Below, in pieces: positions 5,784-60,608 of a DNA stretch of 64,000 bases. The stretch is taken from contig CAZWMJ010000004.1 of assembly GCA_964635045.1 (NCBI GenBank), forward strand, positions 2,205-66,204, in the 5' to 3' direction. Positions within the stretch are counted from its first letter, which is position 1. Every line of letters starts with the position of its first letter. The translations under genes were made by a program, and so were the position numbers. The DNA is from an uncultured Gammaproteobacteria bacterium. Lineage in GTDB: Bacteria > Patescibacteriota > Microgenomatia > Levybacterales > UBA12049. The notes under the pieces were generated by a model. The model did no database searches, was not told where the DNA came from, and was given only the letters and a program-made list of their open reading frames with translations.

Positions 5784-7100
5784 TCAAGCCCCGCCTTTGG
5801 CGGGGCGCAGACCCGTTTTGTTTTTCTTTATAAACGGTGACCAGGCAAGTCCGAAAACTAATGCCAACAAAAGTTGTCCCTGCTGCAGTGTCAAAAAGTA
5901 ATGATCAAACAAACCAAGAATCAAGATTACAAATAAAATGATGAATTTTTTATCCTTAATCCTTAAGTATGTCTTGACAATAAACCAAACAAAAAGTAAA
6001 AAACCCACCAGTCCGGTTTCTGCCAAGATAAGAAGGTAAATATTGTGCGCCGGCTGAATGGACAAGAATCCTGCCGGATATTTTTGATAACGGGGGAGGT
6101 TTACCAGAAAATTATTTAGGCCGACACCAAAAATCGGCGAGCTCTTAAACATTTCCATTGCCGCGCCGTTCAGTTGCTGGCGAAGAATAACCGGTTCTCT
6201 GTCCGTTGTTGCTATTGACGCAAAACGGGAGGGAAGGGGAGTTAACCAAATACTACCAATAAATACCAATACTACCAATAACCCAATAAATAAAAATCTC
6301 CGCCATTTCATTAGAAACCACACGCCGGCAACTATCAACCATAAAATTATTGCCACCCGGCTTAAGGTCAAAAATAAGGCAATTGTTCCAATAATAAGTG
6401 AAGCCGTAAATATTGCCGGTTTGAGGTTTAAGGTTTGAAGTTTAAGGTTTGAGGTTACCATCGCCATGGCGATGGTTAGGTATCCTGCCAGCACATTGGG
6501 ATGGGGGAAAGTTCCGTATGGGCGAAGCACCAACCGTCCGTCTATATTGGCATTGGCGATGCCGGGCGTTTGAGCAGAAAACATCCGCTCTCCGAAAAAC
6601 CATAAAATGCCGCCAATTGATGATTGAGCCACAAACTGCCAGATACTCAAGGCTGACTCAAAAATAATACCTGCCGTGAGTAAAACTATCAGAACAGAAA
6701 AATCTTTTTTGGTGCGCATATTTTTGGCAACCATAAAACCAAAAAAAATAAACTCTAAAATTTTAATAAGTTTATAAATCCCCGCGATAGGGGAGAGGGA
6801 GAAAATAATACTACCAATACTACCAATAAATACCAATACTACCAATAACAAAATTAGAAATTGGAAATTGTCCGCCAGAGGCGGATCCACCTTTGGAGGA
6901 AAAATTGAAAATTTCCTCAGGGGAAAAATAAAAACAAAAAATAATAAAATAATAAATATATCTGTTAAATACAGGGTGGGGGAGAGGTAATCAACTCTTA
7001 CTCCCAACACGTAGGCAAAGCTTGGCCAGAAATGAAGACCCAGTTGGGTAGGCAAAAAAAGAACAATCAGATAAAACAACAGGGTTCTCAAGCGACTCAT
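5784..7100 (-). CDS. O-antigen ligase / Wzy-like polytopic membrane protein
   Basis: 438 aa with at least 10 TM helices and an external loop with G/P-rich turns, the usual layout of O-antigen ligase family proteins. It carries in-frame repeat insertions (see findings) and overlaps jag by 4 nt. Confidence 0.6.
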   Translation of the reverse strand: MSRLRTLLFYLIVLFLPTQLGLHFWPSFAYVLGVRVDYLSPTLYLTDIFIILLFFVFIFPLRKFSIFPPKVDPPLADNFQFLILLLVVLVFIGSIGSIIFSLSPIAGIYKLIKILEFIFFGFMVAKNMRTKKDFSVLIVLLTAGIIFESALSIWQFVAQSSIGGILWFFGERMFSAQTPGIANANIDGRLVLRPYGTFPHPNVLAGYLTIAMAMVTSNLKLQTLNLKPAIFTASLIIGTIALFLTLSRVAIILWLIVAGVWFLMKWRRFLFIGLLVVLVFIGSIWLTPLPSRFASIATTDREPVILRQQLNGAAMEMFKSSPIFGVGLNNFLVNLPRYQKYPAGFLSIQPAHNIYLLILAETGLVGFLLFVWFIVKTYLRIKDKKFIILFVILILGLFDHYFLTLQQGQLLLALVFGLAWSPFIKKNKTGLRPAKGGA

Positions 7101-7558
7101 TTCAAAGCCTGCGGCTTAATAACCAGAGTTCTATCTCTTCCCTCTCCTATGGATTCCGTCATTACTTCTTTATCCTCCTGCAGAAGAAGATGGACTACGC
7201 GCCTTTCCCATGATCGAAGAAGAGGCAGGGGAATTTCCTTGCGCTCTAAAATTGCCCGTTCTTTTGCCTGAATGGCCAAGGTTTTTAAAAATTCCGTTCT
7301 GTTCTTTTTATAATCTCCTACGTCAATCGACACCCGCACAAACCGACCGATGGAGTTGGAAACACACAAAGAAGAAATAAGACCAAGAGACTCCAGCACC
7401 TCTCCATGATATCCGATGACTATGCCGCTATCTTCGGTGGTAAGTACTACCTCGATGCTGTCTTCCTGAAAACTGCAACTAAAATCGCCGTCGATTCCTA
7501 ACAGACGAATCAGATCCGCCATCGCTTCTTTTGTTTTTTTTTGCTCTTTTTTATTCAT
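7097..7558 (-). CDS. jag: Jag/KhpB-type RNA-binding protein (KH + R3H)
   Basis: 153 aa. It has a KH-like segment (VVLTTEDSGIVIGYHGEVLESLG) and an R3H-like C-terminus (SWERRVVHLLLQE). Its position directly downstream of yidC is the conserved one. Confidence 0.8.
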   Translation of the reverse strand: MNKKEQKKTKEAMADLIRLLGIDGDFSCSFQEDSIEVVLTTEDSGIVIGYHGEVLESLGLISSLCVSNSIGRFVRVSIDVGDYKKNRTEFLKTLAIQAKERAILERKEIPLPLLRSWERRVVHLLLQEDKEVMTESIGEGRDRTLVIKPQALK

Positions 7559-8385
7559 TTTTTGAAACGCTCAATCCAGGGCTTTAATCCTCCCAGTCCC
7601 TGTATTCTATATTGCTGCAGTATACCAAAAATAGTAAAGGTGTTCCAATACAAAGACAGGCCTATGGGCAAACTGTATGAAAAAAATCCTATCATGACCG
7701 GAAATATGTACAGAGACTGTGATTGGAAAGCCGAGGCAAAATCACCCTTCCCTGCCTTGCCGGCAGGCAGGTTTTTTTCAGTATCTTTTCCCTCTCCTAC
7801 CGGTTTTGGAACCAGCATCATTTTTGACTGAATAAATTGCAAAAAAGCGGTAACAAGCGGCAGGAAAACAATCAGGGGCACAACCGAAATAAGATTTGAC
7901 GGGTGCTGGCCCAAGGGCAGACCGAAAAAACTCTGATCCCACGGTTTTGACAATTTGAAACTATCTGTATAAACAATTTTATTGATATAGGCCACTATGG
8001 CATTTTGATTAAGAGAAACGACGTTTTGTAAAACACTATACAGCGCCCAAATTAGAGGAAGCTGAATAATAATAGGCAAACAGCCAGCGGCCGGATTTAC
8101 CCCGTGTTCTTTGTAAAGCTTCATCGTTTCCTGCTGAAGTCTTTTGGCATCGCCCTTGTGTTTTTCTTTTAGTTTTGAGATGTGAGGAGCAACTTTTTGC
8201 ATTTTGGATGACATGTTAAGCTGGGCGGATGTCAGTGGGTATAAAATCAGCCGGATTACCACAGTCAGCCCAATAATGGAAAATCCCAAAGGATAGGGAA
8301 GATGAGCAAATAATAATAATTTATAAATTGCCACCAGAACGTTAATTATGGGAAACACCAAAAAAACATCAAAAGGATTATTCAT
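7555..8385 (-). CDS. yidC: membrane protein insertase YidC (short form)
   Basis: The block MQKVAPHISKLKEKHKGDAKRLQQETMKLYKEHGVNPAAGCLPIIIQLPLIWALY is the conserved YidC/Oxa1 core. Synteny with yidD and rnpA supports the call. Confidence 0.92.
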   Translation of the reverse strand: MNNPFDVFLVFPIINVLVAIYKLLLFAHLPYPLGFSIIGLTVVIRLILYPLTSAQLNMSSKMQKVAPHISKLKEKHKGDAKRLQQETMKLYKEHGVNPAAGCLPIIIQLPLIWALYSVLQNVVSLNQNAIVAYINKIVYTDSFKLSKPWDQSFFGLPLGQHPSNLISVVPLIVFLPLVTAFLQFIQSKMMLVPKPVGEGKDTEKNLPAGKAGKGDFASAFQSQSLYIFPVMIGFFSYSLPIGLSLYWNTFTIFGILQQYRIQGLGGLKPWIERFKK

Positions 8386-8386: not shown

Positions 8387-8590
8387 TCAACTTAACGGCT
8401 GACACTTTAAAAGTCTAACCAGCGACAGATATCCGCCTTTTACCACTCCCTCTTTGACAATCTGCCGCTTGGCATAGTCAGAACAGGTGGGTGAGAAACG
8501 ACAAAAATTCCTAACTCCTAGAATATTTTTTAGAGTTGGGGAAACAACCGCTTGATAAAAAGCAATAAAGATAAGTAATATTTTTTTCAT
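8387..8590 (-). CDS. yidD: membrane protein insertion efficiency factor YidD
   Basis: 67 aa. Motifs FYQAVVSP and CRFSPTCSDYA are the YidD signature. Confidence 0.9.
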   Translation of the reverse strand: MKKILLIFIAFYQAVVSPTLKNILGVRNFCRFSPTCSDYAKRQIVKEGVVKGGYLSLVRLLKCQPLS

Positions 8591-8916
8591 ATCGCCATTT
8601 TTTCTTTATTAAACATTGTCTTTAATGCTCCGCTAATCTTTTCTAGTTTTTGTTTTGAAACGTCTGTTTTTACGATAAAAAGCATATCATAACCTGTTTT
8701 TATTTCTTTTTCCAAAAGCATCAGGGCAGTGCTAAAAAGTCTTTTTATCCTATTTCTGGCTACAGCGTGTTTATTGATTTTTTTAGAAATAACAAAGCCA
8801 TAACGATTATACAATAATCCATTTTCCCTAAAACGAAGTAAAAAAAGAGGGGTGGCTTGGGCGCCGGTAAATCTTATTCCTAAGTCAACGGGCAAACGGT
8901 ACTTTCTTTTGAACAT
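8587..8916 (-). CDS. rnpA: ribonuclease P protein component
   Basis: 109 aa, basic, with the RNR-like motif AVARNRIKRL. It lies between rpmH and yidD. Confidence 0.88.
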   Translation of the reverse strand: MFKRKYRLPVDLGIRFTGAQATPLFLLRFRENGLLYNRYGFVISKKINKHAVARNRIKRLFSTALMLLEKEIKTGYDMLFIVKTDVSKQKLEKISGALKTMFNKEKMAI

Positions 8917-9062: not shown

Positions 9063-9094
9063 GAATAAAGTATAGCAGAAAAAACAACACCTGT

Positions 9095-11176
9095 CTATTT
9101 AGACTTGCCGAAAACAAGTCCCGTAAAGAATTCTCCCGGTTTCTTTCCCTGGGCCAAAACCGTATGCAGTTCCATGGCAAAACCTACTCTTTGCAGTTGT
9201 CCTTCACTAATATAGTTTTGTAAATAGAAAATTTTTTCAAATTCAGAAACGCTCATGCTTTTTATACGATCCGCTGCTTGCTGGTTACCAGCTCTTGTTA
9301 GTCCTTCCGCATAAATACTTTTTAATTGTGTTTGGTCTGGTAGAAGAACGTCTGTATCAAATTTATCTTTTGTAATACCTGTTTTCCCTCTATAAACGGC
9401 TTTTAGCATGCTTTCTGCCAAAATGCTTTTCATTTGATCGCTGCTAATTTCCTTTGGCCACATTCGACTATCAAGATATACTTCTCTAAAATACTGGGCC
9501 TCCGGCGAGACTAAAAAATCAGCTTCGTTTGGATATTTTGAGAATGCATCCAACACCTGCGCGTTTAATCGTTCTCTCATCGCCTGATCGATTCTCTGAG
9601 CGTTTATCTGTCCACCTGTCTTTCCATGCCCCGTAGCTGGGTTTTTCTCTCGATCTTGATATGCCAAACCAATACCGTCTCCTATTATAACTCCGCTGCT
9701 TCCCGGCACTGCTTTTCCCTGAAAAATTTCTGGATGTGTTTTGGCATGGATTGTTATAAAATCCAGAACCTGATCAACGTTGTCGTCTGAAAGATAGATA
9801 ACAATTTTGTCAAGGCGCCAAAGATCGTAGGGAGATTGTGTATCTGTAATTTTAAAATACAGCGGATTTGTTTTACCCCAATCAATCAGGGCTTGCACCA
9901 TGGCAGGATAATGTTCGTAATTAGGATTAAGATATATTCGATAGGTAGTATTCTCATGTTTTTTTTGATACTCGGGCGATTTATAATGAAGCCAGGGTAA
10001 ATCAGGTTCTACACTAAATCCATCTTTAGGCGCTGCCTGTTCAATATTCGCAAGACCCGTGCGGATGTTAGCTATGTGGGCGTTTGCTTCTTGAATATTC
10101 TCTGCCCGTTCAAATTCTTTTGGTCCAAACATCTGCTGTTCTACGATGCGTTGATAAAGACTTACTGAAAAGAAGTTTTTGGAAAGGGCAAGCACCAAAT
10201 CTTGCGGGGAAGTAGTCCCCTGTTGCTTAAAATGTTCGGCCGCTCTGTCAATTTGATCTTTTAAAATCCTGACTGGCGGGTCGGCGTCTGGAGTAAAACC
10301 TTTCTCCAAAATTTCTTTTGCTTTTAATCTCCTTTTCTCTATTACTGGTTTCGTTTCCCCCTCTGGGGGTTGAGTGGGAGTTGGGATGGGCTTGATGGTT
10401 GTTTGCGCTTGCCCGTCTGGCAACAGGAAGGTCAATAATTCTTTTTCTTTCTCTGTTAAGTTGTTAACACGAAGCGTCTCTTGTCCGTTACTGCTTGTGA
10501 CTTGATTTGCCCCCTCAATCAGAACTTGCGGTTGAGTTTTAAGTTTTGCTTCCGCCTCAGTCAGTTGGGCAATGACTTGGGAGGATTTATCACCAAAAAT
10601 ACCGGCCAGCCATTGCCAGGCAGGGAGGTCTTCATGAAGTCTTTGGTAGTCTATAGTAAATTCTGCTGTTTGGTAAGATTGCAATATGGTGGCGATGAAG
10701 CGCTGTACTCCCGTCTCTTGGGCTTGGGAGGCAAAGAAGACGCTATACAATTGTTCCGCCTGTGTTTGGGTAAACTCATGGGTATTGATATTGATGCGGG
10801 CAAACGCCTGTTTCCACAACTTACCTTTATCTGATGTTTCAAAAAATCGCTGGGCATTCTGAAATGTGGCGGTAGTTTGTTCCACCCACGCTTTTTTTTG
10901 CTCGTCAAATCCCTGTATTTCCTGTCTCTGCCACCACTCTTTCCGTTCATTGATAGAAGCATGATTGAGAAGCGAGTAAGCTCCATTGGGCTTAGTGATT
11001 CTTTCGGCAAGAGGGTGAAACATCTTCTCATCGATTTGGGAAAGCTGTACCTCATGATTTAAGGCATCCCCGTTAATCAACAGTCTTACTTGTAAACCAA
11101 CCAATCCTTCCTTAAAGGCAAGATGTTCATGGGAAACCGGAGGTTCTGTGGTTATGGCTGAGGGTGTTTCACTCAT
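9095..11176 (-). CDS. modular effector-like protein, family member A (shared N-module, unique C-module)
   Basis: 693 aa. Residues 1 to about 230 are roughly 80 percent identical by eye to the N-terminus of the 41134..42696 product and more distantly similar to 42712..44757. A Pro/Thr linker (PIPTPTQPPEGETKP) follows, then an unrelated C-terminal half containing YRIYLNPN...LDKIVIYLSDD. No signal peptide is present. Confidence 0.75.
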   Translation of the reverse strand: MSETPSAITTEPPVSHEHLAFKEGLVGLQVRLLINGDALNHEVQLSQIDEKMFHPLAERITKPNGAYSLLNHASINERKEWWQRQEIQGFDEQKKAWVEQTTATFQNAQRFFETSDKGKLWKQAFARININTHEFTQTQAEQLYSVFFASQAQETGVQRFIATILQSYQTAEFTIDYQRLHEDLPAWQWLAGIFGDKSSQVIAQLTEAEAKLKTQPQVLIEGANQVTSSNGQETLRVNNLTEKEKELLTFLLPDGQAQTTIKPIPTPTQPPEGETKPVIEKRRLKAKEILEKGFTPDADPPVRILKDQIDRAAEHFKQQGTTSPQDLVLALSKNFFSVSLYQRIVEQQMFGPKEFERAENIQEANAHIANIRTGLANIEQAAPKDGFSVEPDLPWLHYKSPEYQKKHENTTYRIYLNPNYEHYPAMVQALIDWGKTNPLYFKITDTQSPYDLWRLDKIVIYLSDDNVDQVLDFITIHAKTHPEIFQGKAVPGSSGVIIGDGIGLAYQDREKNPATGHGKTGGQINAQRIDQAMRERLNAQVLDAFSKYPNEADFLVSPEAQYFREVYLDSRMWPKEISSDQMKSILAESMLKAVYRGKTGITKDKFDTDVLLPDQTQLKSIYAEGLTRAGNQQAADRIKSMSVSEFEKIFYLQNYISEGQLQRVGFAMELHTVLAQGKKPGEFFTGLVFGKSK

Positions 11177-11219
11177 GCTGGTTTGAGTATATCATAATTA
11201 TTGTAACTCAATTTGCCAC

Positions 11220-11249
11220 TTGACAAAAAGTTATCCACATCATTAAACT
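11220..11249 (+). promoter_or_regulatory. putative sigma70-type dnaA promoter (TTGACA, 18 nt spacer, TAAACT)
   Basis: TTGACA lies at 11220-11225 and TAAACT at 11244-11249, 16 nt before the dnaA ATG. A consensus DnaA box sits inside the spacer. Confidence 0.45.
11231..11239 (+). promoter_or_regulatory. perfect consensus DnaA box TTATCCACA
   Basis: Exact 9-mer read directly in the sequence. It is embedded in the putative dnaA promoter spacer, the classical autoregulation layout. Confidence 0.7.
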
Positions 11250-11265
11250 TGAGGAACGAAAATCT

Positions 11266-12618
11266 ATGGATGCTAATCTTGCCAACATCTGGAAAACCGT
11301 TTTGGGAGAAATAGAGATCGAAGTCTCCCGCGCTAATTTTTTGACACTATTCAAAACAACCACCCTTTTATCTCTGGAGGAAAATGCCGCCACCATCGCC
11401 GCCCCCTCCATCATTCTCATTGACCTTCTTAAAAAACGATTTTTGGGAATTATAAAAAAAGCTCTTGACAAGCAAACCGGTAAAGATATCGAAATTATTT
11501 TTGTGCCAAAATCCATCCCGCCCGCTCAACGGGGAGAAAAACAGGAAAAAAACGGACCGTTGTTTGATCTGAGCGATAAGCAAAAGCCCACCGTTGGCCA
11601 TCTCCCCAGGGTCAGGGCGGATTTTACCTTTCAAACAATGGCCGTTTCATCAAGCAACCAACTGGCCTATGTGTCCGCCCAAACCGTGGCCAAAAATGTT
11701 GGCGGCGCGTACAATCCTCTTTTTATTTACGGACCGGTGGGGGTTGGCAAAACACACCTGATGCAGGCCATCGCCAATGAGGTTTATCAAAAAAACCCGG
11801 CTCGCAAAATCGTCTACATCACCAGCGAGGAGTTTACCAACGAAGTGGTTGAAGCCATCCGTTCAAATCAAACCGCCTCCATGAAAAAGAGATTTCGCAC
11901 AGCCAGCCTTTTGATTTTGGACGACGTCCAGTTTATAGCCGGCAAAGACAAAGTGCAGGAAGAGCTTTTCCACACTTTTAATATCTTGATTGATAACGGC
12001 TCACAGATTGTTTTATCCTCCGATCGGCCGCCCGAAGAAATAAAAAAACTGGAAAAGCGGCTGACTTCCCGCTTTTCCGGAGGGTTAACGGTAGACATAG
12101 AAATACCCGATTTTGAATTAAGAACGGCCATCCTTCTTATCAAGGCCAAGAAATACAACGTTAATCTTCCCATAGATATAGCAAAAACCATCGCCTTAAA
12201 AGTCCAGGATGTGAGGGCGCTGGAAGGAACATTGCTTAGGATAATTACAGAAATAGACAGACAGGAAGGCATTATGACAAGTGAAATGGCGGAGCAGATC
12301 CTTAATAATAAACAAAGCGCGGTTTCCGATCGCCTGCATCCAGACGACATAATAAAAAATGTCTGTTCTTTTTACGATGTAAAACCAACCTTGATAAAAG
12401 GGCCCAAGAGAGACGCTTATTTAGTGAAAGCAAGACAAACCGCCATGTATTTTTTAAAAAAGGAGTTGGGGATGACATATGTGGAAATTGGCAATTTACT
12501 GGGGGGAAGAGATCATACCACCATTATGTATGGTGTAGAAAAAGTGGAAAAGTTTTTATCTATAAATAAAGTCTTGGCTGACGATATATCAAGATTAAGT
12601 CTTGTCATTAATAAGTAA
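11266..12618 (+). CDS. dnaA: chromosomal replication initiator DnaA
   Basis: 450 aa. Walker A is GPVGVGKTHLMQAIAN and Walker B is LILDDVQFIAGK. The C-terminal DNA-binding helix region is DHTTIMYGVEKV. Confidence 0.97.
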   Translation: MDANLANIWKTVLGEIEIEVSRANFLTLFKTTTLLSLEENAATIAAPSIILIDLLKKRFLGIIKKALDKQTGKDIEIIFVPKSIPPAQRGEKQEKNGPLFDLSDKQKPTVGHLPRVRADFTFQTMAVSSSNQLAYVSAQTVAKNVGGAYNPLFIYGPVGVGKTHLMQAIANEVYQKNPARKIVYITSEEFTNEVVEAIRSNQTASMKKRFRTASLLILDDVQFIAGKDKVQEELFHTFNILIDNGSQIVLSSDRPPEEIKKLEKRLTSRFSGGLTVDIEIPDFELRTAILLIKAKKYNVNLPIDIAKTIALKVQDVRALEGTLLRIITEIDRQEGIMTSEMAEQILNNKQSAVSDRLHPDDIIKNVCSFYDVKPTLIKGPKRDAYLVKARQTAMYFLKKELGMTYVEIGNLLGGRDHTTIMYGVEKVEKFLSINKVLADDISRLSLVINK

Positions 12619-12656
12619 AATTTGTTTCAACATTTTATTCCCAATGTTTTCAACTT

Positions 12657-12719
12657 GTTTTCCACATTTTTTAACTCATTAATTACTTGCTGCTGCTTGC
12701 CCTATTGCTTTTTTCCACT
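12657..12719 (+). promoter_or_regulatory. DnaA-box-like motifs in the AT-rich dnaA-dnaN spacer (candidate oriC segment)
   Basis: TTTTCCACA at 12657-12665 has one mismatch to consensus and TTTTCCACT at 12711-12719 has two. The 139-nt intergenic region is AT-rich. Confidence 0.3.
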
Positions 12720-12757
12720 TTTCCCATTACACTACTACAACAACTAATGTAATATAT

Positions 12758-13897
12758 ATGAAATTAGATCTTCTTTCAGAAAATCTGCAAAAAAAATTAT
12801 CTTTTGTTAACCACGCCGTCTCTCCAAGAAGCCAGCTACCGGTATTATTAAATATTTTACTCGTTGCTAAAAACGGAAAGTTGATAATCAGCGCCACCGA
12901 TTTAGAAATAGGAATACAAACAGAAATACCGGCCAAAGTGGACGAAGAAGGAGCGGTGACCGTTCCGGCTAAAATATTCACCGAGCTTATCTCCACCATT
13001 TCAACCGGTAAAATAACGCTTCGGACAAAAGAAAAAACACTAGAGGTACTTAGTCAAAAAACGCAAAGTTCTTTTCAAACAATCGCCGCAGAAGAATTCC
13101 CCAAACTATATGAAGACAAAGGAGAAAACATACTTGTTTTGGACAAACAAATAATACAAAAAGATTTCTCTTTGGTGGTTTTGTCAGCTAGTCTTGATGA
13201 CGGCAGGCCGGCCCTTTCCGGCGTTCTTATCAAAACAGGAGAAGCAGGAAGCGATGAATTGTTATTTGTGGCAACGGACGGGTTTAGATTGTCTCTTAAA
13301 AAAAAGAGCGTTCATCTTAAAAAGGCCGAAAACAAAGAAATATTTGATAAACTGATAATCGTTCCGGCCAGAGTTATTAAAGAGATTGCCCTGATGAAAC
13401 AGGCGGAAGGCGAGGTAGGGGTGGCGATATCGAAAAAAAATAATCAAATCTTATTTTTTCAGGAAGATACGGTTTTGGTGGGAAGATTGATAGACGCGGA
13501 TTTCCCTCAATTTGAAAAAATTATTCCGGCCGATTTTAACACTCAAGTTTTTTTTGACCGGGAAGAGATGCAGAAGGCGGTAAAATTATGCGCTATTTTC
13601 GCGCTGGGTTCAGGCAATGTTATAAAACTTTCTTTTCAGAAAGAAAAAATCAAAGTATGGGCTAAATCTCCCTCTGTGGGGGAAAACGAAGTATGGATTG
13701 ATGCTAGGCTAACAGGGGAGGAAAACGAGATTGCTTTCAACGCCCGCTATCTTTTGGATATTTTGGCAAACGTGGAAGAAGGGGAGATGGTTTTTGAAAT
13801 GACAGGGCCGTTAAACCCCGGAGTTTTTAAGATAAAAGACGACCCCGCATTTCTACATCTAATCATGCCCATCCGCATCCAGGCGGAGACCACATAA
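12758..13897 (+). CDS. dnaN: DNA polymerase III beta sliding clamp
   Basis: 379 aa directly downstream of dnaA. The length fits three clamp domains, with typical blocks LIISATDLEIGI, FVATDGFRLS and FNARYLLDIL. Confidence 0.93.
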   Translation: MKLDLLSENLQKKLSFVNHAVSPRSQLPVLLNILLVAKNGKLIISATDLEIGIQTEIPAKVDEEGAVTVPAKIFTELISTISTGKITLRTKEKTLEVLSQKTQSSFQTIAAEEFPKLYEDKGENILVLDKQIIQKDFSLVVLSASLDDGRPALSGVLIKTGEAGSDELLFVATDGFRLSLKKKSVHLKKAENKEIFDKLIIVPARVIKEIALMKQAEGEVGVAISKKNNQILFFQEDTVLVGRLIDADFPQFEKIIPADFNTQVFFDREEMQKAVKLCAIFALGSGNVIKLSFQKEKIKVWAKSPSVGENEVWIDARLTGEENEIAFNARYLLDILANVEEGEMVFEMTGPLNPGVFKIKDDPAFLHLIMPIRIQAETT

Positions 13898-13912: not shown

Positions 13913-14398
13913 TTATTGTTTGTTTTCACAAAAACTCAAACGGTATATTGTTCCAGCATAATCCGGATTGGCAAAATAAGGCGTGGTTATATCAACACCT
14001 AACCGGCAGGCATCTGGTTGGCTAACCCCCAAAAACTTAAGAAAGTCCCCTTCGGCCTCACTTCTGACCTCAGAAAACGGAGAAGAGAGAATGGAAATTA
14101 AGAATTTATTCTCCGGGGAAAAATAAACAAACTGATAGAGTCCTTGATCCTTGATAAGGATATCACCCCTGTTGGTGGTTTCTTTTGCTGACAGGAAAAA
14201 ATTGTTGACTAAAACACCGGAAATATTAATTTTCCCCCCAGCTGGAAGAGTTAAGGAGGGAGTCGGGATTGGGGTGAGGAGGGGAGGAACGGGCGCTGGT
14301 TTATTTTTTGACTGCGATAAAAAAAATATAGTAATAATGCTTATTATAAAGACAAACAAAAGAACCAAAAACATTTTTTTTCTCATATCGTGTTTCAC
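13913..14398 (-). CDS. membrane-anchored exported protein, last gene of the T4SS-like operon
   Basis: 161 aa with an N-terminal TM anchor, a Pro-rich linker (PAPVPPLLTPIPTP) and a small globular domain. Its start overlaps the stop of the upstream gene by 4 nt. Confidence 0.6.
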   Translation of the reverse strand: MKHDMRKKMFLVLLFVFIISIITIFFLSQSKNKPAPVPPLLTPIPTPSLTLPAGGKINISGVLVNNFFLSAKETTNRGDILIKDQGLYQFVYFSPENKFLISILSSPFSEVRSEAEGDFLKFLGVSQPDACRLGVDITTPYFANPDYAGTIYRLSFCENKQ

Positions 14399-16209
14399 CT
14401 AATAATACCACACACGCGCGCGGCTGACCAAGCAGACCAATTGTTACCGCTACCTGAAATTGCTACAGCCTTGTTAATATTGTTATCGGAATCTTTAAGG
14501 CCTATTTCGCATGTGTTTAGCTTAGCTTGATCACTAATTTCACACCATGGAGGCTTAAGACCATAATCCTTGAATGCCCCGGGGCAACGAGTTGAGGGCA
14601 AAAGATTTATTTGAAAAAGACCAACGCTATAGTCTGCGGTCGCCCCCTTCCTCTTGGTGTCTTCTTCTTTATCGTTGGGATCTCCTCTTAGGCATCTATT
14701 ATTGAGAGCAAAGGGATTACTCCCGCTTTCTCTTTGACAAATCATCGAGGCATTCTTGACTGCTGTTTCATCCGGGAAATATTTCCTTAAATTATCAACA
14801 GAGCAAGGTCCTGATCCCACAGGACAAGTCCCTATCTGTGGATTAGGAGGTGTTGTGGTTGGAGAAGAACCGCCGCCTCCGGGAGTGAGAGGGGAGGAGC
14901 TAGGGAGGATATCCCTTGGGGCAAAGCCGACAATGGCAAAAGTACCGGTAAGGATAAATATAATAATAAGAATTGGGGTGGAGGCAGCTAAAAACGTCAA
15001 TAGAGTTCTGATAAATTGCATCAATAGTTTATTACGCAACTGATTAAGAGGATTACCGGGGGTTTTGGGCAGCGGCGGTTTCTTTTTCTTTGGCAGGAAA
15101 CGATTGGCCAGATCCATGCCCCGCGACCGCCCGCCATGCCCTCCTCCTTGTGGCGGTGAAGGTTCTTGCGGTTGTTCGCCGCCGCCATCATCACCGCCAA
15201 GTCCTGAAGGAATTGATTGGCCGGAGGGCATGACCAAGCCGCCGGATGGGGCGGTTGGCTGTTGGCTTAGGGCTTGCTGTAAACGTCGGTCAATCTCTTC
15301 TCGTGAGATTCCTGAATAAGCGGGGCGCGTTCTTTCCGCCACCCTGATTTGCCTTCCTCCGGTACTAGCCATTTGTTCGGTCTCTTTGATATCTTGAGCG
15401 GCTTTTATTTGGTCGTTAGACATGGCGTATTGTTTGGCCTTGTCTTCGTATTGATAAGCAAACTTTAGATATGATCTTCTTTCAACGGCCCGGCGGACAT
15501 CCTCTAGTCTGGTTGCGGGGTTAATTTTTTGTAAGTGGGCAAATCTTGCTTGTGTGTGTTCGTCAATTTCCAAGCGCAGTCTTTTAACTTGCGGGTCATC
15601 GTCGGGATTTTTGTAAATTTTCGCTTTCTCTTTATCATAACGTTTAACTCTGCCGGCAAATTTTTTATTATTCCTAAATTCTTCTTCCGTCTCTTGATCT
15701 ATCGGCGGTTTATCGCTGTTATCTAAAGAGCCATAGAGGTAATCCAAGCCTTCTTTGGAAGTGAAATCTTTGCCCGGATTTTTTTCCAGCCATTCTTGTT
15801 TTTTTCTCTCCAAAATAGCCCGATAATCTTCATCGTCCTGCATGATTTTTGGCCGGTTGAGGAACATGGCGGCTAAAAAAGGAAGCATGGCTAGATCGGA
15901 AATAGCGGAAGGCGCGCCATGTGAAGGAAGCCCCAGTTGCTTATCGAGTTCTTGTCTTTCTTCTCTTTGCTCCCGAACGTAAGAATAGGCCTCTATGACT
16001 TCTTTGCCCACCCAAATGCTGGTATCAACATGAAGTTCGGGATGTTTCTGCGCCCAAGCGAAAAATCTTTCTCTGGTGGTAAAAAACATTCTATCCTGAG
16101 GATGCATTTCTGCAAATTGATGCCAGGAAGCGGCCAGTTTATCCGCTTCTTTGGGTCTTTTTCTGATGAGGTCTTCCAGCTCTTGGAAATTTCTGATATC
16201 TGGTTCCAT
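14395..16209 (-). CDS. bitopic protein with C-terminal lysozyme-like (VirB1-type lytic transglycosylase-like) domain
   Basis: 604 aa. The layout is a charged helical N-region of about 380 aa, one TM helix (LLTFLAASTPILIIIFILTGTFAIVGF), a Gly/Pro/Thr linker, then a Cys-rich domain. That domain has QRESGSNPFALNN (candidate catalytic Glu-Ser) and ADYSVGLFQIN, which resembles the lysozyme/SLT motif DYGxxQIN. Confidence 0.6.
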   Translation of the reverse strand: MEPDIRNFQELEDLIRKRPKEADKLAASWHQFAEMHPQDRMFFTTRERFFAWAQKHPELHVDTSIWVGKEVIEAYSYVREQREERQELDKQLGLPSHGAPSAISDLAMLPFLAAMFLNRPKIMQDDEDYRAILERKKQEWLEKNPGKDFTSKEGLDYLYGSLDNSDKPPIDQETEEEFRNNKKFAGRVKRYDKEKAKIYKNPDDDPQVKRLRLEIDEHTQARFAHLQKINPATRLEDVRRAVERRSYLKFAYQYEDKAKQYAMSNDQIKAAQDIKETEQMASTGGRQIRVAERTRPAYSGISREEIDRRLQQALSQQPTAPSGGLVMPSGQSIPSGLGGDDGGGEQPQEPSPPQGGGHGGRSRGMDLANRFLPKKKKPPLPKTPGNPLNQLRNKLLMQFIRTLLTFLAASTPILIIIFILTGTFAIVGFAPRDILPSSSPLTPGGGGSSPTTTPPNPQIGTCPVGSGPCSVDNLRKYFPDETAVKNASMICQRESGSNPFALNNRCLRGDPNDKEEDTKRKGATADYSVGLFQINLLPSTRCPGAFKDYGLKPPWCEISDQAKLNTCEIGLKDSDNNINKAVAISGSGNNWSAWSAARVCGIIR

Positions 16210-16224: not shown

Positions 16225-18108
16225 CTAAATGACGACCGGTTTTGCCGATTGAGGTGGTTGAGCTGTAATCGGGGGAGTTTTTAAGGGAGCCGTAGGTGTG
16301 GGCGTGGGGGGAGGAGGGGGTTGGACTGCTTGTTTTTGCATTTCCGCAGGATTGGTGGTGATCATCTCGTGTTCAAAAGGAGCGGCCACCACCCGAATGG
16401 CCACGTGATTTTGTCCGGCGAAAAACAGTCCTTCTCCAATGTTTGCCGAAAGAAGAAGCTCTTTTTCCCCCTCTGTCAGATAAAATGTTTTGGCTACCAG
16501 ATCAACTTCGGAAGTGCCCTGTTTTAACAATAATTGCAGCGAGGAGTTGGACAAAACCGCCTTGCCGTAATCCGTGGAGAGAAAATCTTCCACGTCTTGG
16601 GTGGCGGTGGTTAGCCCCAGATAATACTTGCGCGCCCGCTTGGCGATGCCATAGACAAAAGAGGCGGAATCTTCATATTTCATCATGTACCAAGCCTCGT
16701 CCAGCACCAACAGCCGTTTTTTGAGGGTTTTTCTAATTCTTGTCCAAACAAAATCCAAGATGATATGCATGGCAATAGGACGAAGTTCTTCCTCTAAGGC
16801 CTTAATGGAAAAGACGGTTAGAGGATTTTTGATGCTAAAGTTTGACTGCTGATTAAAAATGCCGGACAGACTGCCTTTGATAAATTTTTCCAAACGCAAA
16901 GCCAGATCTTTGGCGCTGTTATCTTCCATACCCAGCAGCGTTTTGTAAAGATCTTCCATCAGGGGCGGTTCTTTGCTTTGTGTTGCCGGATCCAGAGTGA
17001 TGCCTTTTTGCTGATAAGTTGAAACTAACGCCCTGTCTAAAATTGCATCCTGCCCCGCATCCAGCTCTCCCAAAACAATTCGCAGCAGGCCGTGAAGGGA
17101 GAGAATTTTAATACCAAGCTCATTTTCTCCCTCTTCATAAAGAGCTGACAGATCAAACGGATTTATTTTTATCGGGGCAGAAGGAGTAAAAGCCACATGT
17201 TCTCCTCCCAGCGTTGTGCAAAGAGCCTCATATTCTCCTTCCGGATCCACCACGATAACCTCAGTCCCAAACATTAGTTGTCTGGTAACTTCCAGTTTGA
17301 TAAGATACGATTTTCCGGCACCGGATTTTCCCAAAACCACCTCATTGGCATTTTCCAGTGAGAACCGGTCAAAGATAATCAGGGAATTGTTTTGGGCGTT
17401 GATGCCGTATAATACTCCCTTGTCTTGAGTGAGGGTGGCCGAGGTAAAGGGAAAGGTTGATGCCAAGGACGTGGTATCCATGTTTCTGGTAATAAAAAGT
17501 TTATCCTGCCCCATTGGCAGACTTGACTTAAAGCCTTCTTCTGTTTGAAGAGTGGCTGTTTTGGCCACCAGCAGAAGAGAAGAAAGTGTAATAGTTAATC
17601 TTTTTGACGCTTCTTCCAGCTCCTGTTGTGTTTTGGCAATGATGGTGACATACAAACTAAATTGAAAAAAACGCTCCACTCCTTTGGCCAGTTCGTCTTG
17701 AAGACCCATGGCATCTTCCAGGGCCGCTCTTACTTTTGGATCAATCACCTGATTTTCTTCAACCTGAGAGGATAGGGTGGCTTCCATCTCGGCGATTTTC
17801 CGTCTCAGGTCGGATAAAACATCGGCCGAGGTGGCAGGATAGATAAACATGGAAACATACAGTTCGTGATCAAAATCAATAACGGGAGATAGCCAGTTGG
17901 GAGACACAAATCGGGGATAACCGACCACAAAAAATGTTTTGTAAAATTTCTCTCCTACCCGAATAGAGCGAAAGTCAACCTCGATAGAGGATGGAGCGAT
18001 CACGTCGGTAAGCCCCACCATGCCTTTTTCTATGGGGACTGAGGCCGCGTTTGACGGGGTGGCCTTTTTCTCGGGTTGGTTTTTGTTTTTTTTAGAGCCA
18101 AAAATCAT
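16225..18108 (-). CDS. virB4: type IV secretion ATPase, VirB4/TrbE/PrgJ family
   Basis: 627 aa. Walker A is VLGKSGAGKSYLIK and Walker B is LLVLDEAWYMM. The N-terminal domain is typical of Gram-positive VirB4 homologs, and the tail is Pro-rich. Confidence 0.88.
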   Translation of the reverse strand: MIFGSKKNKNQPEKKATPSNAASVPIEKGMVGLTDVIAPSSIEVDFRSIRVGEKFYKTFFVVGYPRFVSPNWLSPVIDFDHELYVSMFIYPATSADVLSDLRRKIAEMEATLSSQVEENQVIDPKVRAALEDAMGLQDELAKGVERFFQFSLYVTIIAKTQQELEEASKRLTITLSSLLLVAKTATLQTEEGFKSSLPMGQDKLFITRNMDTTSLASTFPFTSATLTQDKGVLYGINAQNNSLIIFDRFSLENANEVVLGKSGAGKSYLIKLEVTRQLMFGTEVIVVDPEGEYEALCTTLGGEHVAFTPSAPIKINPFDLSALYEEGENELGIKILSLHGLLRIVLGELDAGQDAILDRALVSTYQQKGITLDPATQSKEPPLMEDLYKTLLGMEDNSAKDLALRLEKFIKGSLSGIFNQQSNFSIKNPLTVFSIKALEEELRPIAMHIILDFVWTRIRKTLKKRLLVLDEAWYMMKYEDSASFVYGIAKRARKYYLGLTTATQDVEDFLSTDYGKAVLSNSSLQLLLKQGTSEVDLVAKTFYLTEGEKELLLSANIGEGLFFAGQNHVAIRVVAAPFEHEMITTNPAEMQKQAVQPPPPPTPTPTAPLKTPPITAQPPQSAKPVVI

Positions 18109-18749: not shown

Positions 18750-19964
18750 TTAATTAAAAAGCGACCTGCGCAGTTCCTCCCGCTCATCCGTTGAAATAAC
18801 CTCCAGCGGCAACATAGCAACGCCTTCGGCGATTATTTCCACAGCGTCGAATTTATGCTGGCCTTTGGGATCTTCAAAAACCACGGTGTAGGTGCCATTG
18901 CTAAGAGAAGTTGCCGAGGAGAATTGGCCTAAGGCGTTGGTCTTAAAAGCCCTGACCGCATTGCCGTCTTTGTCTTTTACCTCAACTAAAATATTGGGCA
19001 GGACATTATTTCGAGAATCCTTGATGATCCCGCTTATCAAGTTGGGAAAGTCCGCTCCGGCGATGATTGGCGCGCCGACAGTTTTACTTAAGTCTTTGGG
19101 CACGGTTCTGACATTGGGAGTGACTGTTTTGGTGGGGGTAAAACCTGTTTGTTTTTGCAGATTAAATTGTTTCTGCAAAGTCAGCATCTGATCTTCAAGC
19201 GCTTTTTTCTCCGACAAAGTTTGCTGCAACTGCGCTTCCAGCTCCAGCACTTTTTCATGAATACCGGGAGCGGAGACGACATCCTTTTTTTCTTCCTCTT
19301 GTTTTTTGGCGGCCTTAAGCGCTTCTTTAATAAGGTTTGTTTCCTTTTCTAGCTCTTCGCTGGTTTTTTGCTCCATGACATTAGTCGGTTTTTCTTCTTC
19401 AAATTGCGGCTCTGTTTGTTCTGTTGGTAATTGATTCCCTATTTCTTTAATTGTTAATAATCGGGGTTTGTCGTTAGCTGGCTGTTTCGTATTCTTACCG
19501 GGAGAAAAAAGCGAGGAAATGCTGCTAAAAAAAACCGTTTCTTTTTCATCGAGTTTGCCGGCCGGTTTTTTAGCGGTAGCGCTTAAAAAACGTTCCAGCT
19601 TTTCTTTGCTTTCGGGAGCGGTTGTTTTTGCTTTGGGATGAGATTTTTTGGGTGGAGGAGGAAAAGACAGGCTCACTCCCGCTTTTTGAAAAAGATATTG
19701 ATTGGGGCTAAACATGGCTCTTAAGAAATAAGAAACCATGGTATCCAATGGTCGTCCGTCAATGGGAACGAAAGATAGGGAAAAACCAAAGCCGGCGCAA
19801 AAAAACGAGATAAAAATTTTTATAAAAAATGGCAAAGGAGAGATAAAAAACAAGTAGGCCAAAAATGCGCCGCCGGCCAAATAAGCAAACTGCTTAATGG
19901 TCATATCTCCGATCAGCTTAAACTGAAAGCCGGTGATGTCTTGCGGAATGGGATGATTTTCCAT
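18750..19964 (-). CDS. PrgI/VirB3-like membrane protein fused to a coiled-coil and a CarboxypepD_reg-like beta-sandwich
   Basis: 404 aa. The N-terminus PIPQDITGFQFKLIGDMTIKQFAYLAGGAFLAYLFF plus two TM helices matches the PrgI family pattern. The C-terminus ISGIIKDSRNNVLPNILVEVKDKDGNAVRAFKTNALGQFS...GTYTVVFEDP is a typical carboxypeptidase-regulatory-like fold motif. Confidence 0.65.
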   Translation of the reverse strand: MENHPIPQDITGFQFKLIGDMTIKQFAYLAGGAFLAYLFFISPLPFFIKIFISFFCAGFGFSLSFVPIDGRPLDTMVSYFLRAMFSPNQYLFQKAGVSLSFPPPPKKSHPKAKTTAPESKEKLERFLSATAKKPAGKLDEKETVFFSSISSLFSPGKNTKQPANDKPRLLTIKEIGNQLPTEQTEPQFEEEKPTNVMEQKTSEELEKETNLIKEALKAAKKQEEEKKDVVSAPGIHEKVLELEAQLQQTLSEKKALEDQMLTLQKQFNLQKQTGFTPTKTVTPNVRTVPKDLSKTVGAPIIAGADFPNLISGIIKDSRNNVLPNILVEVKDKDGNAVRAFKTNALGQFSSATSLSNGTYTVVFEDPKGQHKFDAVEIIAEGVAMLPLEVISTDEREELRRSLFN

Positions 19965-20102: not shown

Positions 20103-20768
20103 CTAAAACGGTGGTTTTGCCTCAAGAAGAAGTTTATGAGCTAGAGATACGAAGTAATGCTCAAGCGCTCTTTTTTGTAACGGTACAAGCATTTCTGGAA
20201 AGTTTTGCAGCGTTTTTACTTCAAGAAATAGGTGCGCGAGGTAAAAGTTTGAAAGTCCCAAGTCTTTTTTCTTCGCGTCTTGCAAGAGCCTGTTAAAGGT
20301 AAGCTGATTTTGTTTTTTAAGGATAAAATAGAGATCAATGAAGTCCTTGGCCTCGGTTCTGCCGAATATGGCGGTAATTTTATTGCTTCCAATATTCTCA
20401 ACGGAATCAACGCGAATCTTGCCGAAGGTTTTTATGCGGCCAAAGTGCACAGGCTGTTCTCTTACAAGGTCTATTTTTAGTTCTTCACTTTTGTTAATAA
20501 GGAAAAATTTGTGGTATCCCTCTGTTGCCAGACGGTGATCAAGTTTTGTTTTTGTCTTCTCTGCAACGGATGTTAGCATTTGTTTTACAGGAGCAATCTC
20601 GATATCCTCAAAAGTAAAGAGGTCAAGGTCAACGCTTTTTCTGTGGTGAAAATAAAACCCGGCAAGGGCGGTACCACCAGTAAGAAAGTACGTTTGGCCA
20701 GCCGGCCATTCGAAGAAGTTTTGGAGAACCTCCTCTTGAAGCCTAGTGAGTGGATTTTTCTTTTTCAT
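20103..20768 (-). CDS. AbiEii/AbiGii-type nucleotidyltransferase toxin (type IV TA family)
   Basis: 221 aa. The motif FLTGGTALAGFYFHHRKSVDLDLFT matches the AbiEii (DUF1814) nucleotidyltransferase core. It is paralogous to 40219..40851. Confidence 0.7.
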   Translation of the reverse strand: MKKKNPLTRLQEEVLQNFFEWPAGQTYFLTGGTALAGFYFHHRKSVDLDLFTFEDIEIAPVKQMLTSVAEKTKTKLDHRLATEGYHKFFLINKSEELKIDLVREQPVHFGRIKTFGKIRVDSVENIGSNKITAIFGRTEAKDFIDLYFILKKQNQLTFNRLLQDAKKKDLGLSNFYLAHLFLEVKTLQNFPEMLVPLQKRALEHYFVSLAHKLLLEAKPPF

Positions 20769-40218: not shown

Positions 40219-40851
40219 TTAAATCTTTAATTTAGTCCTTGCAAGTTTAAGGGCTTCGCTTTGGAAAAATTTTTTAATCTCCTCCCAGGAAGTTGAGATT
40301 AACATTTTAGGCATCTGGTCCATTTCTGCATCTGCAAAATAATTTAAGCTCCTGATTACCGAGTATATATGCTCTTTTAAAACGCCATATTTTTGATCAT
40401 AAAATTTAAGCATCTCCTCTAAAGAAAACTCTTTTGCTAGAAAAAATAAATCAATAAAATCTCTTTTAGTTCCTCTATCTTCTAAGGCATGAACTTTCAT
40501 AGCTGCAATGTCTTCTTTTTGGAGAATTTGAATGCCCTCAAAATCTACAGTTTTTTTGATGAGCTGGTACTGATAATAAAACAGGCTGAATTTTGTCTGC
40601 CCAACCTTACCCCAGACAGTTCTCCATGCCGTGCCTTCTTCCTTGTATTCTGGTAATTGATCAAGCTCTCCGGACAATGTTTTTTCATCAAAAACTTCCC
40701 GGGTAAAAAAATCCAAATCAACAGAAATTCTATGGTTTAAATGTAGAGCCAATGCGGTACCACCAGCCAGATAGCTTTTTTTAACAATGCTTATTTTAGA
40801 TACTAGCTTGAGAGCCCGAATGGTATCCGGGAGTAAGGCTTTTGTAAGCAT
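40219..40851 (-). CDS. AbiEii/AbiGii-type nucleotidyltransferase toxin, second copy
   Basis: 210 aa. The motif YLAGGTALALHLNHRISVDLDFFT and the C-terminal DFIDLFFL block parallel 20103..20768 (DFIDLYFIL). Confidence 0.7.
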   Translation of the reverse strand: MLTKALLPDTIRALKLVSKISIVKKSYLAGGTALALHLNHRISVDLDFFTREVFDEKTLSGELDQLPEYKEEGTAWRTVWGKVGQTKFSLFYYQYQLIKKTVDFEGIQILQKEDIAAMKVHALEDRGTKRDFIDLFFLAKEFSLEEMLKFYDQKYGVLKEHIYSVIRSLNYFADAEMDQMPKMLISTSWEEIKKFFQSEALKLARTKLKI

Positions 40852-42696: not shown

Positions 42697-42711
42697 GTTG
42701 GTTTAAGTATA

Positions 42712-44757: not shown

Positions 44758-44804
44758 ACGGCAAACTATATTATATCCCATTTTTTGCTATACTCAAAAC
44801 AGTT

Positions 44805-45476
44805 ATGATTTTTCTTATCTTATTTTTAGCGGAGATCTTGATGCTTTTTTTCCTGTCCCGTTTTGTAACGCGTTTGCTGTCGCAGGTTTTTTTCCGCCTA
44901 AGCCGCAGTCAAACAAAAACCATCTATCTTCTGTCTTTTCTTTTTCTGCCGGGTGTAGTTATTCACGAATTAGCCCATTTGTTAACGGCGGCGGTGTTGT
45001 TGGTGCCGGTGGGAGAGGTGGAGTTTATACCAAAAGTCACTGATGGGGGAGTCAAGCTGGGCAGTGTAAACATCGGCAAAACAGATCCGTTTAGAAGAGC
45101 TATTATCGGGGTGGCGCCGGTTTTGATCGGGATGATGATACTGTTGGGAATTGGCTACTATTTTATACAGAGTAATTCCATTATTTATACTATCGAGTCG
45201 GGAGCTTTAAGAGTATTTTTATACGCGATAATTGTTTATTTCCTGTTTGCTATTAGCAATACCATGTTTTCCAGCAGGAAAGACGTGGAGGGATTGTTGG
45301 AAGTGGGTTTGGTGGTCATTATTCTTTTTATAGCTCTTTATTTTACCGGTTTTCGCGTCAACTTTTCACTATCTGAAAATTTATCCCAATTCTTGAAAAC
45401 ATCGGATGTTTTCTTACTAATACCTCTTTCTATAGATGTGGTCTTGTGGGGAATTATCAAAATTTTCCGTGGATGA
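44805..45476 (+). CDS. polytopic membrane protein with HExxH motif (M50/DUF3267-like putative metalloprotease)
   Basis: 223 aa with 5-6 TM helices. The motif VVIHELAHLLTA lies within or next to a TM segment. Confidence 0.55.
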   Translation: MIFLILFLAEILMLFFLSRFVTRLLSQVFFRLSRSQTKTIYLLSFLFLPGVVIHELAHLLTAAVLLVPVGEVEFIPKVTDGGVKLGSVNIGKTDPFRRAIIGVAPVLIGMMILLGIGYYFIQSNSIIYTIESGALRVFLYAIIVYFLFAISNTMFSSRKDVEGLLEVGLVVIILFIALYFTGFRVNFSLSENLSQFLKTSDVFLLIPLSIDVVLWGIIKIFRG

Positions 45477-46272: not shown

Positions 46273-46358
46273 AAAATATAATTTTCAATTTACAATTTAT
46301 AATTCTCAATAAATTTACAATGTTTCAATTTGAAAATTAGGTCATTGAAAATTAATAA

Positions 46359-60402: not shown

Positions 60403-60487
60403 TGGCGGAGGAAGAGGGATTCGAACCCACATGTCCTTTCGGACCCCAGTTTTCAAGACTGGTGAGCCACCATTGCTCAATTCCTCC
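60403..60487 (-). tRNA. tRNA-Ser (anticodon UGA), CCA encoded
   Basis: Manual fold. Acceptor GGAGGAA pairs with TTCCTCC. The anticodon arm is CCAGT-CTTGAAA-ACTGG. There is a long variable arm and T-loop TTCGAAT, with one U-U mismatch in the T stem. Confidence 0.8.
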
Positions 60488-60520
60488 AATGTTTACACTG
60501 AGGAGTGAAACGACGAAGTG

Positions 60521-60608
60521 CGGAGAGTACAGGATTCGAACCTGTGCGAGCGAATTTACGCTCAAGGGGTTAGCAACCCCTCGCTTTGGACCACTCAGCC
60601 AACTCTCC
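60521..60608 (-). tRNA. tRNA-Ser (anticodon GCU)
   Basis: Manual fold. Acceptor GGAGAGT pairs with ACTCTCC. The anticodon arm is AGGGG-TTGCTAA-CCCCT. There is a long variable arm and T-loop TTCGAAT. Confidence 0.85.

Follow-up and report, generated by a model that had tools for sequence, protein, structure and literature searches.

A HopA1-like domain gene, probably a lineage-specific insertion, between rpmH and dnaA in a Levybacteria chromosome

The gene considered here, gene A, lies between rpmH and dnaA (9095–11176, minus strand) in a 64-kb stretch of a metagenome-assembled contig from a member of the Levybacteria (CAZWMJ010000004.1, assembly GCA_964635045.1, positions 2,205 to 66,204). 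This stretch is referred to as the window, and positions are given in its coordinates. Gene A encodes a protein of 693 amino acids (aa), with an N-terminal family domain (N-domain), a Pro/Thr-rich linker, and a HopA1-like domain. Judging from the related dnaA loci and the sequences at the junctions, gene A is very probably a lineage-specific accessory insertion that left the replication origin where it was. In the overall explanation that we prefer, with a probability of approximately 0.6, gene A would have recombined, in this lineage specifically, into the short rpmH–dnaA spacer of a Levybacteria chromosome, between two divergent promoters that would both have been left usable. Its 5′ module, comprising the N-domain and its own extended −10 element, would be a paralogous copy from a tandem of two family members, C and B, at 41–45 kb in the window, and its 3′ module would encode a HopA1-like enzyme. 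The protein would most likely be a phospho-Ser/Thr lyase, which removes phosphate irreversibly by β-elimination, and the N-domain would be a module for delivery or docking, shared across the family and joined to interchangeable cargo domains.

The rpmH–dnaA spacer in the window and in related genomes

Apart from gene A, the gene order of the origin region follows the classic arrangement. According to the open reading frame (ORF) list, the minus strand contains rpmH (encoding L34; 8925–9062), which is the first gene of the rpmH–rnpA–yidD–yidC–jag operon and has tblastn matches in relatives, rnpA (8587–8916), yidD (8387–8590), yidC (7555–8385), and jag (7097–7558), and the plus strand contains dnaA (11266–12618; 57–73% identity to Levybacteria DnaA) and dnaN (12758–13897). 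These best DnaA matches place the organism in Candidatus Levybacteria (Microgenomates). The stop of gene A is 32 nt from the start of rpmH, and its start is 89 nt from that of dnaA (11177–11265). The original prediction, a note made from the window sequence, had described a 2.1-kb accessory gene at this position and an 89-nt gap to dnaA with a perfect DnaA box; both descriptions were accurate, and the box, TTATCCACA, is located at 11231–11239.

We compared the dnaA loci of relatives, 31 from species-representative genomes and 72 from metagenomes, at each of which rpmH, rnpA, yidD, yidC, and dnaN were placed by tblastn. Some of these loci represent the same genome in both collections, so the independent loci are fewer than those counted. 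No homologue of gene A was found at any of the dnaA loci fetched (31 + 72), in keeping with its description as accessory. The spacer statistics were based on 52 Levybacteria loci whose DnaA was ≥56% identical and for which sufficient upstream sequence was available. The rpmH–dnaA spacer was ≤170 bp in 46 of the 52 (typically 107–157 bp) and 267–308 bp in four, and large expansions occurred in two. This check of synteny had been proposed together with the view that gene A at the same site in deeply diverged relatives would mark it as ancestral; the comparison came out negative and favors insertion. Exact-sequence look-ups of rpmH and the gene A protein matched no contig.

The expansions found elsewhere contain other genes. 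In the closest relative (L071; 72.5% DnaA identity), an expansion of 2.3 kb holds an N6/N4 DNA methylase gene and an adjacent 373-aa ORF (L071:1710–3708), presumably encoding the cognate endonuclease, i.e., a restriction–modification pair. The spacer of L040 contains a gene for a NadD-like cytidylyltransferase (L040:5250–5993), and that of the more distant L083 (41% DnaA identity) contains a ribbon–helix–helix (RHH)/MazF-like pair and a 191-aa ORF (L083:4382–5621). All three retain the dnaA promoter, including its DnaA box. The rpmH–dnaA spacer is thus a site into which unrelated accessory genes have been inserted independently on several occasions. A promoter-to-promoter spacer of ~125 bp beside the initiator gene thus tolerates and repeatedly receives foreign genes, with the dnaA operator kept, and this tolerance bears on the evolution of gene order near the origin in very small genomes.

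The restriction–modification pair of L071 and the MazF-like toxin–antitoxin pair of L083 at the same site raise the alternative that the spacer is a small defense or addiction hotspot and that gene A is a defense or toxin gene (an abortive-infection effector, for example) and not an effector aimed at the host. An AbiEii toxin gene beside paralogues B and C and a PIN gene preceding the homologue P0004 point in the same direction. However, the PADLOC families matched none of A, B, C, and P0003, gene A is followed by rpmH after 32 nt rather than by an immunity-like ORF, and the metabolic NadD-like gene in L040 means that the cargo at this site is not restricted to defense genes. We regard this alternative as improbable.

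Promoters and insertion junctions

Promoters were identified with a promoter scan and by-eye alignment with the relatives. The dnaA promoter (11220–11249, plus strand) consists of a −35 element (TTGACA), an 18-nt spacer that includes the perfect DnaA box, and a −10 element (TAAACT), in the sequence CTTGACA-AAAAGTTATCCACAT-CATTAAACT, and the block CTTGACAAAAAGTTATCCACATTATTAAACT of this promoter is conserved in relatives without the insertion. The predicted rpmH promoter (9069–9097, minus strand) consists of a −35 element (TAGACA, 9097–9092), 17 nt, and a TG-extended −10 element (TATACT, 9074–9069) located 6 nt from the ATG; both the sequence of the −10 element and its spacing from the start codon have been conserved among relatives, and the rpmH mRNA is probably leaderless. 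The −35 element overlaps the TAG stop of gene A and is unlike those of the relatives (TTTTAA or TTTTCA), which places the left insertion junction, on our reading of the sequence, at approximately 9080–9094. The right junction, at 11195/11196, is the end of the homology to paralogue B. Both divergent promoters survive the insertion, and the leftover flanks (32 + 89 nt) are close to the ancestral spacer length of 122–128 nt.

No direct or inverted repeats were found flanking gene A, no integrase was found at the insertion, and no tRNA gene was found near gene A. An origin of gene A from a transposon or genomic island was rejected, given a single ORF without repeats, integrase, or tRNA.

TG-extended −10 elements (TATACT) located 6–9 nt before the ATG, without a Shine–Dalgarno sequence, were observed for rpmH, gene A, and paralogue B (9063–9074, 11177–11194, and 42697–42715, respectively), which suggests that their mRNAs may be leaderless or nearly so.

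DnaA boxes and the replication origin

The DnaA box beside the insertion would be an autoregulatory operator of dnaA, and the origin would most likely have been located in the dnaA–dnaN spacer before the event as well as after it. A scan for DnaA boxes, as recommended in the original prediction, identified the copy of TTATCCACA in the gene A–dnaA gap as the only perfect site in the 64-kb window, together with 21 sites with one mismatch (13.6 ± 3.6 expected). Numerically, one perfect 9-mer in 64 kb is not a significant finding, and the box gains its meaning from the position that it keeps in relatives. In those without the insertion, in which the spacer is ~81–170 bp, a single TTATCCACA lies between the −35 (TTGACA) and −10 elements of the dnaA promoter. 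The box is located 25–35 nt before the dnaA start codon, and almost every relative that lacks the insertion has the same block at the same distance. A DnaA box in the dnaA promoter is the layout of dnaA autoregulation established for Escherichia coli and Bacillus subtilis. The position of the box inside a conserved dnaA promoter therefore points to an autoregulatory operator layout rather than to a remnant of the origin. The likeness, seen at the sequence level, consists of a consensus DnaA box between the −35 and −10 elements of the dnaA promoter, whereas the window differs from the E. coli and B. subtilis systems in its single box and very short spacer. The rpmH–dnaA spacer of the window and of its relatives contains one box only, rather than several clustered DnaA boxes together with an AT-rich unwinding element.

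The dnaA–dnaN spacer (12619–12757, plus strand; 29.5% G+C) is likely to be the ancestral oriC region. In the window, it contains three degenerate, phased box-like 9-mers with two, three, and one mismatches, the last being TTTTCCACA (12658–12666). A further 9-mer, TTTTCCACT (12711–12719), has two mismatches to the DnaA box and falls within the putative dnaN promoter, a conserved block on the plus strand in which TTGCTT (12705–12710) is followed by 17 nt containing TTTTCCACT and by TACACT (12728–12733). The two box-like 9-mers noticed earlier in this spacer, TTTTCCACA and TTTTCCACT, are thus present. Relatives without the insertion have two to four DnaA-box-like 9-mers, ~11 bp apart, in the same spacer; because the cluster already exists in these relatives, an origin in the dnaA–dnaN spacer would be ancestral. 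The suggestion that the insertion displaced oriC into this spacer is contradicted by the presence of both the cluster and the promoter box in relatives without the insertion.

The GC-skew test that had been proposed to place the origin gave a divided result. The skew of the whole window mostly follows the coding strand and places no origin, whereas, when the minus-strand genes are considered, the skew at third codon positions (GC3 skew) reverses its sign between dnaA and dnaN (p = 0.01 for the eight left-hand genes versus the seven nearest right-hand genes; p = 0.07 versus all 21 right-hand genes). This sign change fits weakly with an origin between dnaA and dnaN.

The block preceding dnaN (12705–12757 and the corresponding regions of relatives) is highly conserved and consists of TTGCTT, 17 nt containing TTTTCCAC(T/A), TACACT, and then ACTACTACAACAAC. 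Read on the opposite strand, a run of CTA/CAA triplets before dnaN somewhat resembles DnaA-trios.

Paralogues B and C and the source of the 5′ module

Paralogue B (520 aa; 41134–42696, minus strand) carries a donor-like copy of the N-terminal module and is arranged in tandem with paralogue C (689 aa; 42712–44781, minus strand). The first ~283 aa of the gene A protein are 75% identical to B and ~40% identical to C. In a blastn comparison, the segment at 10347–11195 (minus strand) matched 41864–42715 of paralogue B with 81% nucleotide identity over 853 nt, and this duplicated segment extends 19 nt upstream of the ATG of gene A. Comparison of the upstream regions of A and B revealed a putative extended −10 element of gene A, TGATATACT (11186–11194, minus strand), 9 nt before the ATG; in the C–B tandem, TGATATACT overlaps the stop codon of paralogue C. 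Because the A/B match covers this element, the 5′ module of gene A seems to have moved with its own promoter and looks derived from a C–B-like array, and TGATATACT would act as the promoter of gene A, copied along with the gene.

The synonymous divergence (dS) between A and B was 0.66, indicating that the event was not recent, and the ratio of nonsynonymous to synonymous divergence (dN/dS) was 0.22, indicating that both copies have been maintained under constraint. Positive selection between A and B, suggested at first by their amino-acid identity being below their nucleotide identity, was rejected by this ratio. The surroundings of B and C, with a LytR–amidase gene and genes for giant proteins, resemble the surroundings in which a complete Roizmanbacteria genome carries members of the family, which suggests that the B/C locus is the older home of the family. 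The assignment of gene A to a family in the original prediction was borne out by B and C in the window and by the many relatives recovered in the exhaustive search described below.

Alternatively, gene A could be an ancestral occupant of this site that every sampled relative has lost, or the arrangement could be an assembly chimera. Such a reading gains some weight from the metagenomic assembly of the contig and from the nearest examinable relative, which has a DnaA identity of only ~73%. However, the short spacers in 46 of the 52 loci are closely similar in length and conserved in sequence, and the expansions elsewhere contain unrelated genes. Furthermore, the 5′ module has a paralogue within the same genome that includes the upstream sequence overlapping the stop codon of another gene, the G+C content of gene A (42.7%) matches that of dnaA (42.9%), and an identity of 81% to the paralogue is too low for repeat-induced misassembly. 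Ancestry with loss, or a chimera, is thus very improbable in our estimation, and lineage-specific insertion is the reading that we retain.

The true start of paralogue C is probably an internal Met (MENSES...), eight codons (24 nt) downstream of the ATG given in the ORF list. This Met aligns with the N-terminus of the family and leaves a TATAAT upstream, and the listed start is only 23 nt from a divergent ORF (44805–45476).

The C-terminal HopA1-like domain

The C-terminal domain (C-domain; aa 281–693; 9095–10336, minus strand) is a HopA1-like putative phospho-Ser/Thr lyase, with the core of the Pfam family HopA1 (PF17914) at aa 405–526 (9599–9964, minus strand). This family was the only match in the library, and the scores for the full protein (23.9 bits) and for the C-domain (25.1 bits) exceeded the gathering cut-off of 22.7 by a narrow margin. 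The presence of a domain of the HopA1 effector type agrees with the earlier label of gene A as an effector-family gene. Scans against NCBIfam and PADLOC gave no meaningful match. An exhaustive HMMER search over 1.84 billion representatives identified 281 relatives of the gene A protein, most of which cover only residues ~10–280; ~15 cover only residues ~280–690, and one (P0005) has the whole architecture. A word-indexed search recovered few (three matches for the protein, one for the N-domain profile, and four for the C-domain profile). The relatives with only the C-domain are mostly stand-alone proteins of 409–594 aa, and their contigs are short and provide little gene context. HopA1 was matched in 11 of 17 C-domain homologues (best E = 3.4e-8).

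The AlphaFold2 model of aa 281–693 had a predicted local distance difference test score (pLDDT) of 88 and a predicted template modeling score (pTM) of 0.86. In a Foldseek search of the PDB, all of the top 24 matches were HopA1 (4rsx/4rsw), LxmY (9dk1_B), the lyase domains of the class III lanthipeptide synthetases CuvL, ThurKC, and PneKC, or OspF/SpvC, with probabilities of 0.96–1.0, E values of 2e-3 to 1e-1, and target TM scores of 0.12–0.49, the latter two being of low significance; the probability reached 1.0 for HopA1, LxmY, the class III lyase domains, and OspF/SpvC. OspF/SpvC, LanKC lyase domains, and LanY/CaoY remove phosphate irreversibly by β-elimination. Across the 17 homologues, R413, K442, R454, D456, and Y461 are invariant and K457 is nearly so, and R413, K442, R454, and Y461 lie on consecutive strands of the modeled sheet. 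HopA1-like LanY proteins have been experimentally shown to be pSer/pThr lyases, which in CaoY use Arg187, Lys219, Arg229, and Tyr236 (PMC9486802). A LanY-type enzyme would be expected to have a catalytic Lys base, an Arg (or Lys) that stabilizes the enolate, an Arg that binds the phosphate, and a Tyr. Compared by their spacing, R413/K442/R454/Y461 (29/12/7) resemble R187/K219/R229/Y236 of CaoY (32/10/7). On the combined evidence of motif and predicted fold, we lean toward phospho-Ser/Thr lyase activity (β-elimination of phosphate) of the C-domain.

Gene A thus shares with the HopA1-like lyases a PF17914 match above the cut-off, the first matches of its predicted fold, and an Arg...Lys...Arg...Tyr set with LanY-like spacing (PMC9486802). 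In contrast to these enzymes, its C-domain is ~410 aa long, has additional helical regions flanking the core on either side, and is fused to an unrelated N-terminal domain of 260 aa; it has no partner kinase, cluster for ribosomally synthesized peptides with post-translational modifications (RiPPs), type III secretion system (T3SS), or chaperone; and its host belongs to the Candidate Phyla Radiation (CPR), in which it is known from its sequence and a structural model. No RiPP precursor peptide, cyclase, or T3SS gene was found in the window, and the only secretion genes found there are those of a monoderm-type type IV secretion system (T4SS). Gene A may be described as a probable lyase domain of the HopA1 type built onto a novel, modular scaffold.

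The N-terminal domain and its modular family

The N-domain (aa 1–262; 10391–11176, minus strand) is predicted to be all-α, with a pLDDT of 88 in its AlphaFold2 model. No structural homologue was found with Foldseek in the PDB (best probability 0.16) or BFVD (best probability 0.10), and a Pfam scan of 68 members assigned the domain to no family. The domain occurs in ~250 protein clusters with varied C-termini, and the two carriers traceable to named organisms are from Levybacteria and Roizmanbacteria. The carriers are 200–1354 aa long, and their C-termini are mostly unrecognizable, with occasional HopA1, DEAH helicase, ABC1, M54 peptidase, and GT2 domains. N-domain proteins also occur in tandem arrays, and at a syntenic locus consisting of Pth, a GalT-like gene, an N-domain gene, and a Zn-ribbon gene, the cargo differs between genomes.

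This architecture resembles that of polymorphic toxins (LXG, Rhs, and CdiA-CT) in its conserved N-terminal helical module, Pro/Thr-rich linker, and interchangeable C-termini, as well as in its multiple copies, tandem arrays, and cargo modules shared with other large proteins. In contrast to these toxins, the N-domain has no relation in sequence or fold to known trafficking domains, the recognized cargo (helicase, ABC1, M54, GT2, and HopA1) is not typical of toxins, the export route is only conjectural, and there is no downstream immunity gene. Specifically, no immunity-like ORF was found directly downstream of the family members in the window, with rpmH following 32 nt after A and B directly after C. 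The family therefore appears to be of the polymorphic effector/toxin type in its architecture, without a recognizable trafficking domain or immunity gene.

Two giant ORFs in the window (26530–32049 and 33201–39722; 1839 and 2173 aa), without a Pfam match, are 93–97% identical over their N-terminal ~440 aa but diverge thereafter, which is indicative of a recent duplication or of gene conversion. In the 2173-aa protein, residues 1506–1843 have 46% identity to the C-terminal part of P0010, an N-domain protein from Roizmanbacteria.

The T4SS neighborhood and the possible function of gene A

Downstream of dnaN, Pfam matches on the minus strand identified a VirB1-like protein with a lysozyme (SLT-like) domain (14395–16209), VirB4 (16225–18108), and a PrgI/VirB3-like protein with a CarboxypepD_reg domain (18750–19964). 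A T4SS-pilin domain was also found at the C-terminus of a 509-aa protein (49101–50630), ~30 kb beyond this monoderm-type T4SS block. A position of virB4 downstream of dnaN is conserved in most relatives, and A, B, and C all lie within a 40-kb region of T4SS and cell-surface genes. An origin-proximal T4SS has been described in Microgenomatia, with virB4 and its partners beside dnaN, dnaA, rpmH, and rnpA, and a benefit from gene dosage has been proposed (PMC12102498). The window is alike in that virB4 and its partners adjoin these four genes, and the gene-dosage benefit that the original prediction envisaged for gene A would accordingly be no new idea; the window differs in the cargo inside the rpmH–dnaA spacer and in the gene A family, which were not described in that study (PMC12102498).

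The architecture of gene A and its proximity to the T4SS allow the tentative suggestion that its product is an effector exported to the host bacterium through the adjacent system. A wider version, in which a polymorphic effector family of the Microgenomates uses the ~260-aa all-α N-domain to target interchangeable cargo, including the phospho-Ser/Thr lyase, to the origin-proximal T4SS, with the rpmH–dnaA spacer as a recurrent landing site, is more speculative still. To our knowledge, no substrate has been reported for the essential and widely conserved T4SS of CPR bacteria (Patescibacteria). A multi-copy Microgenomates family with a shared N-module and swappable enzymatic C-termini in the T4SS region would be a concrete candidate set of such substrates, and a phospho-lyase cargo, if confirmed, would point to irreversible silencing of Ser/Thr-phosphorylation signaling in the host.

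Gene A may instead encode a cytoplasmic enzyme of the bacterium itself, for example one that regulates the Ser/Thr phosphoproteins of the cell or that serves as a LanY-type dehydratase subunit for a ribosomal peptide, with its position beside dnaA and the T4SS being incidental. The protein has no signal peptide or known secretion domain, its homologues elsewhere have housekeeping and cell-wall genes as neighbors (Pth, GalT-like, glycosyltransferases, and PGK), and, outside Pseudomonas, the HopA1-like enzymes that have been characterized are RiPP lyases (PMC9486802), all of which would fit such an enzyme. However, the window has no LanK/APH-like kinase, precursor peptide, or cyclase, the joining of the N-domain to many unrelated cargo domains would be unusual for a dedicated metabolic enzyme, and A, B, and C all fall within the T4SS/cell-surface region. 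We consider a purely cytoplasmic role unlikely, if still a serious contender; were it correct, the finding would shrink to a tidy lineage-specific gene gain.

Several observations detract from the explanation of gene A as an inserted lyase gene with a delivery module. No signal peptide, known secretion motif, or secretion domain was found in its protein, and its homologues in other genomes were not beside T4SS genes on the contigs examined. In addition to the weak E values (2e-3 to 5e-2) and target TM scores (0.37–0.49) even of the better fold matches, sequence searches of the PDB with the protein and the C-domain profile found nothing, leaving no residue-level alignment to a characterized lyase; the His general acid of OspF/LanKC was not evident in the C-domain; and none of the ORFs of at least 150 aa in the window had a Pfam match to a kinase family (LanK/APH-like). 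The placement of the origin rests on the 64-kb window rather than on a whole chromosome, and a nearest compared relative with ~73% DnaA identity leaves the insertion undated.

Other genes in the window

Genes for AbiEii-type nucleotidyltransferase toxins are present at the end of the T4SS block (20103–20768) and directly downstream of paralogue B (40219–40851), and their products are 27% identical. The adjacent ORFs at 21164–24058 (964 aa) and 24146–26527 (793 aa) are related in their N-terminal ~80–130 aa. The 793-aa ORF joins LytR_cpsA_psr and Amidase_3 domains, which are encoded by two separate genes in the Roizmanbacteria locus L110. A thiamine salvage/biosynthesis trio, consisting of ThiD-like Phos_pyr_kin, AIR-synthase-related ThiL-like, and ThiE TMP-TENI genes, adjoins paralogues B and C (45457–47899). 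Finally, a cluster of six tRNA genes (60403–62968) serves only two amino acids, Ser (tga, gct, cga, and gga) and Arg (ccg and gcg).

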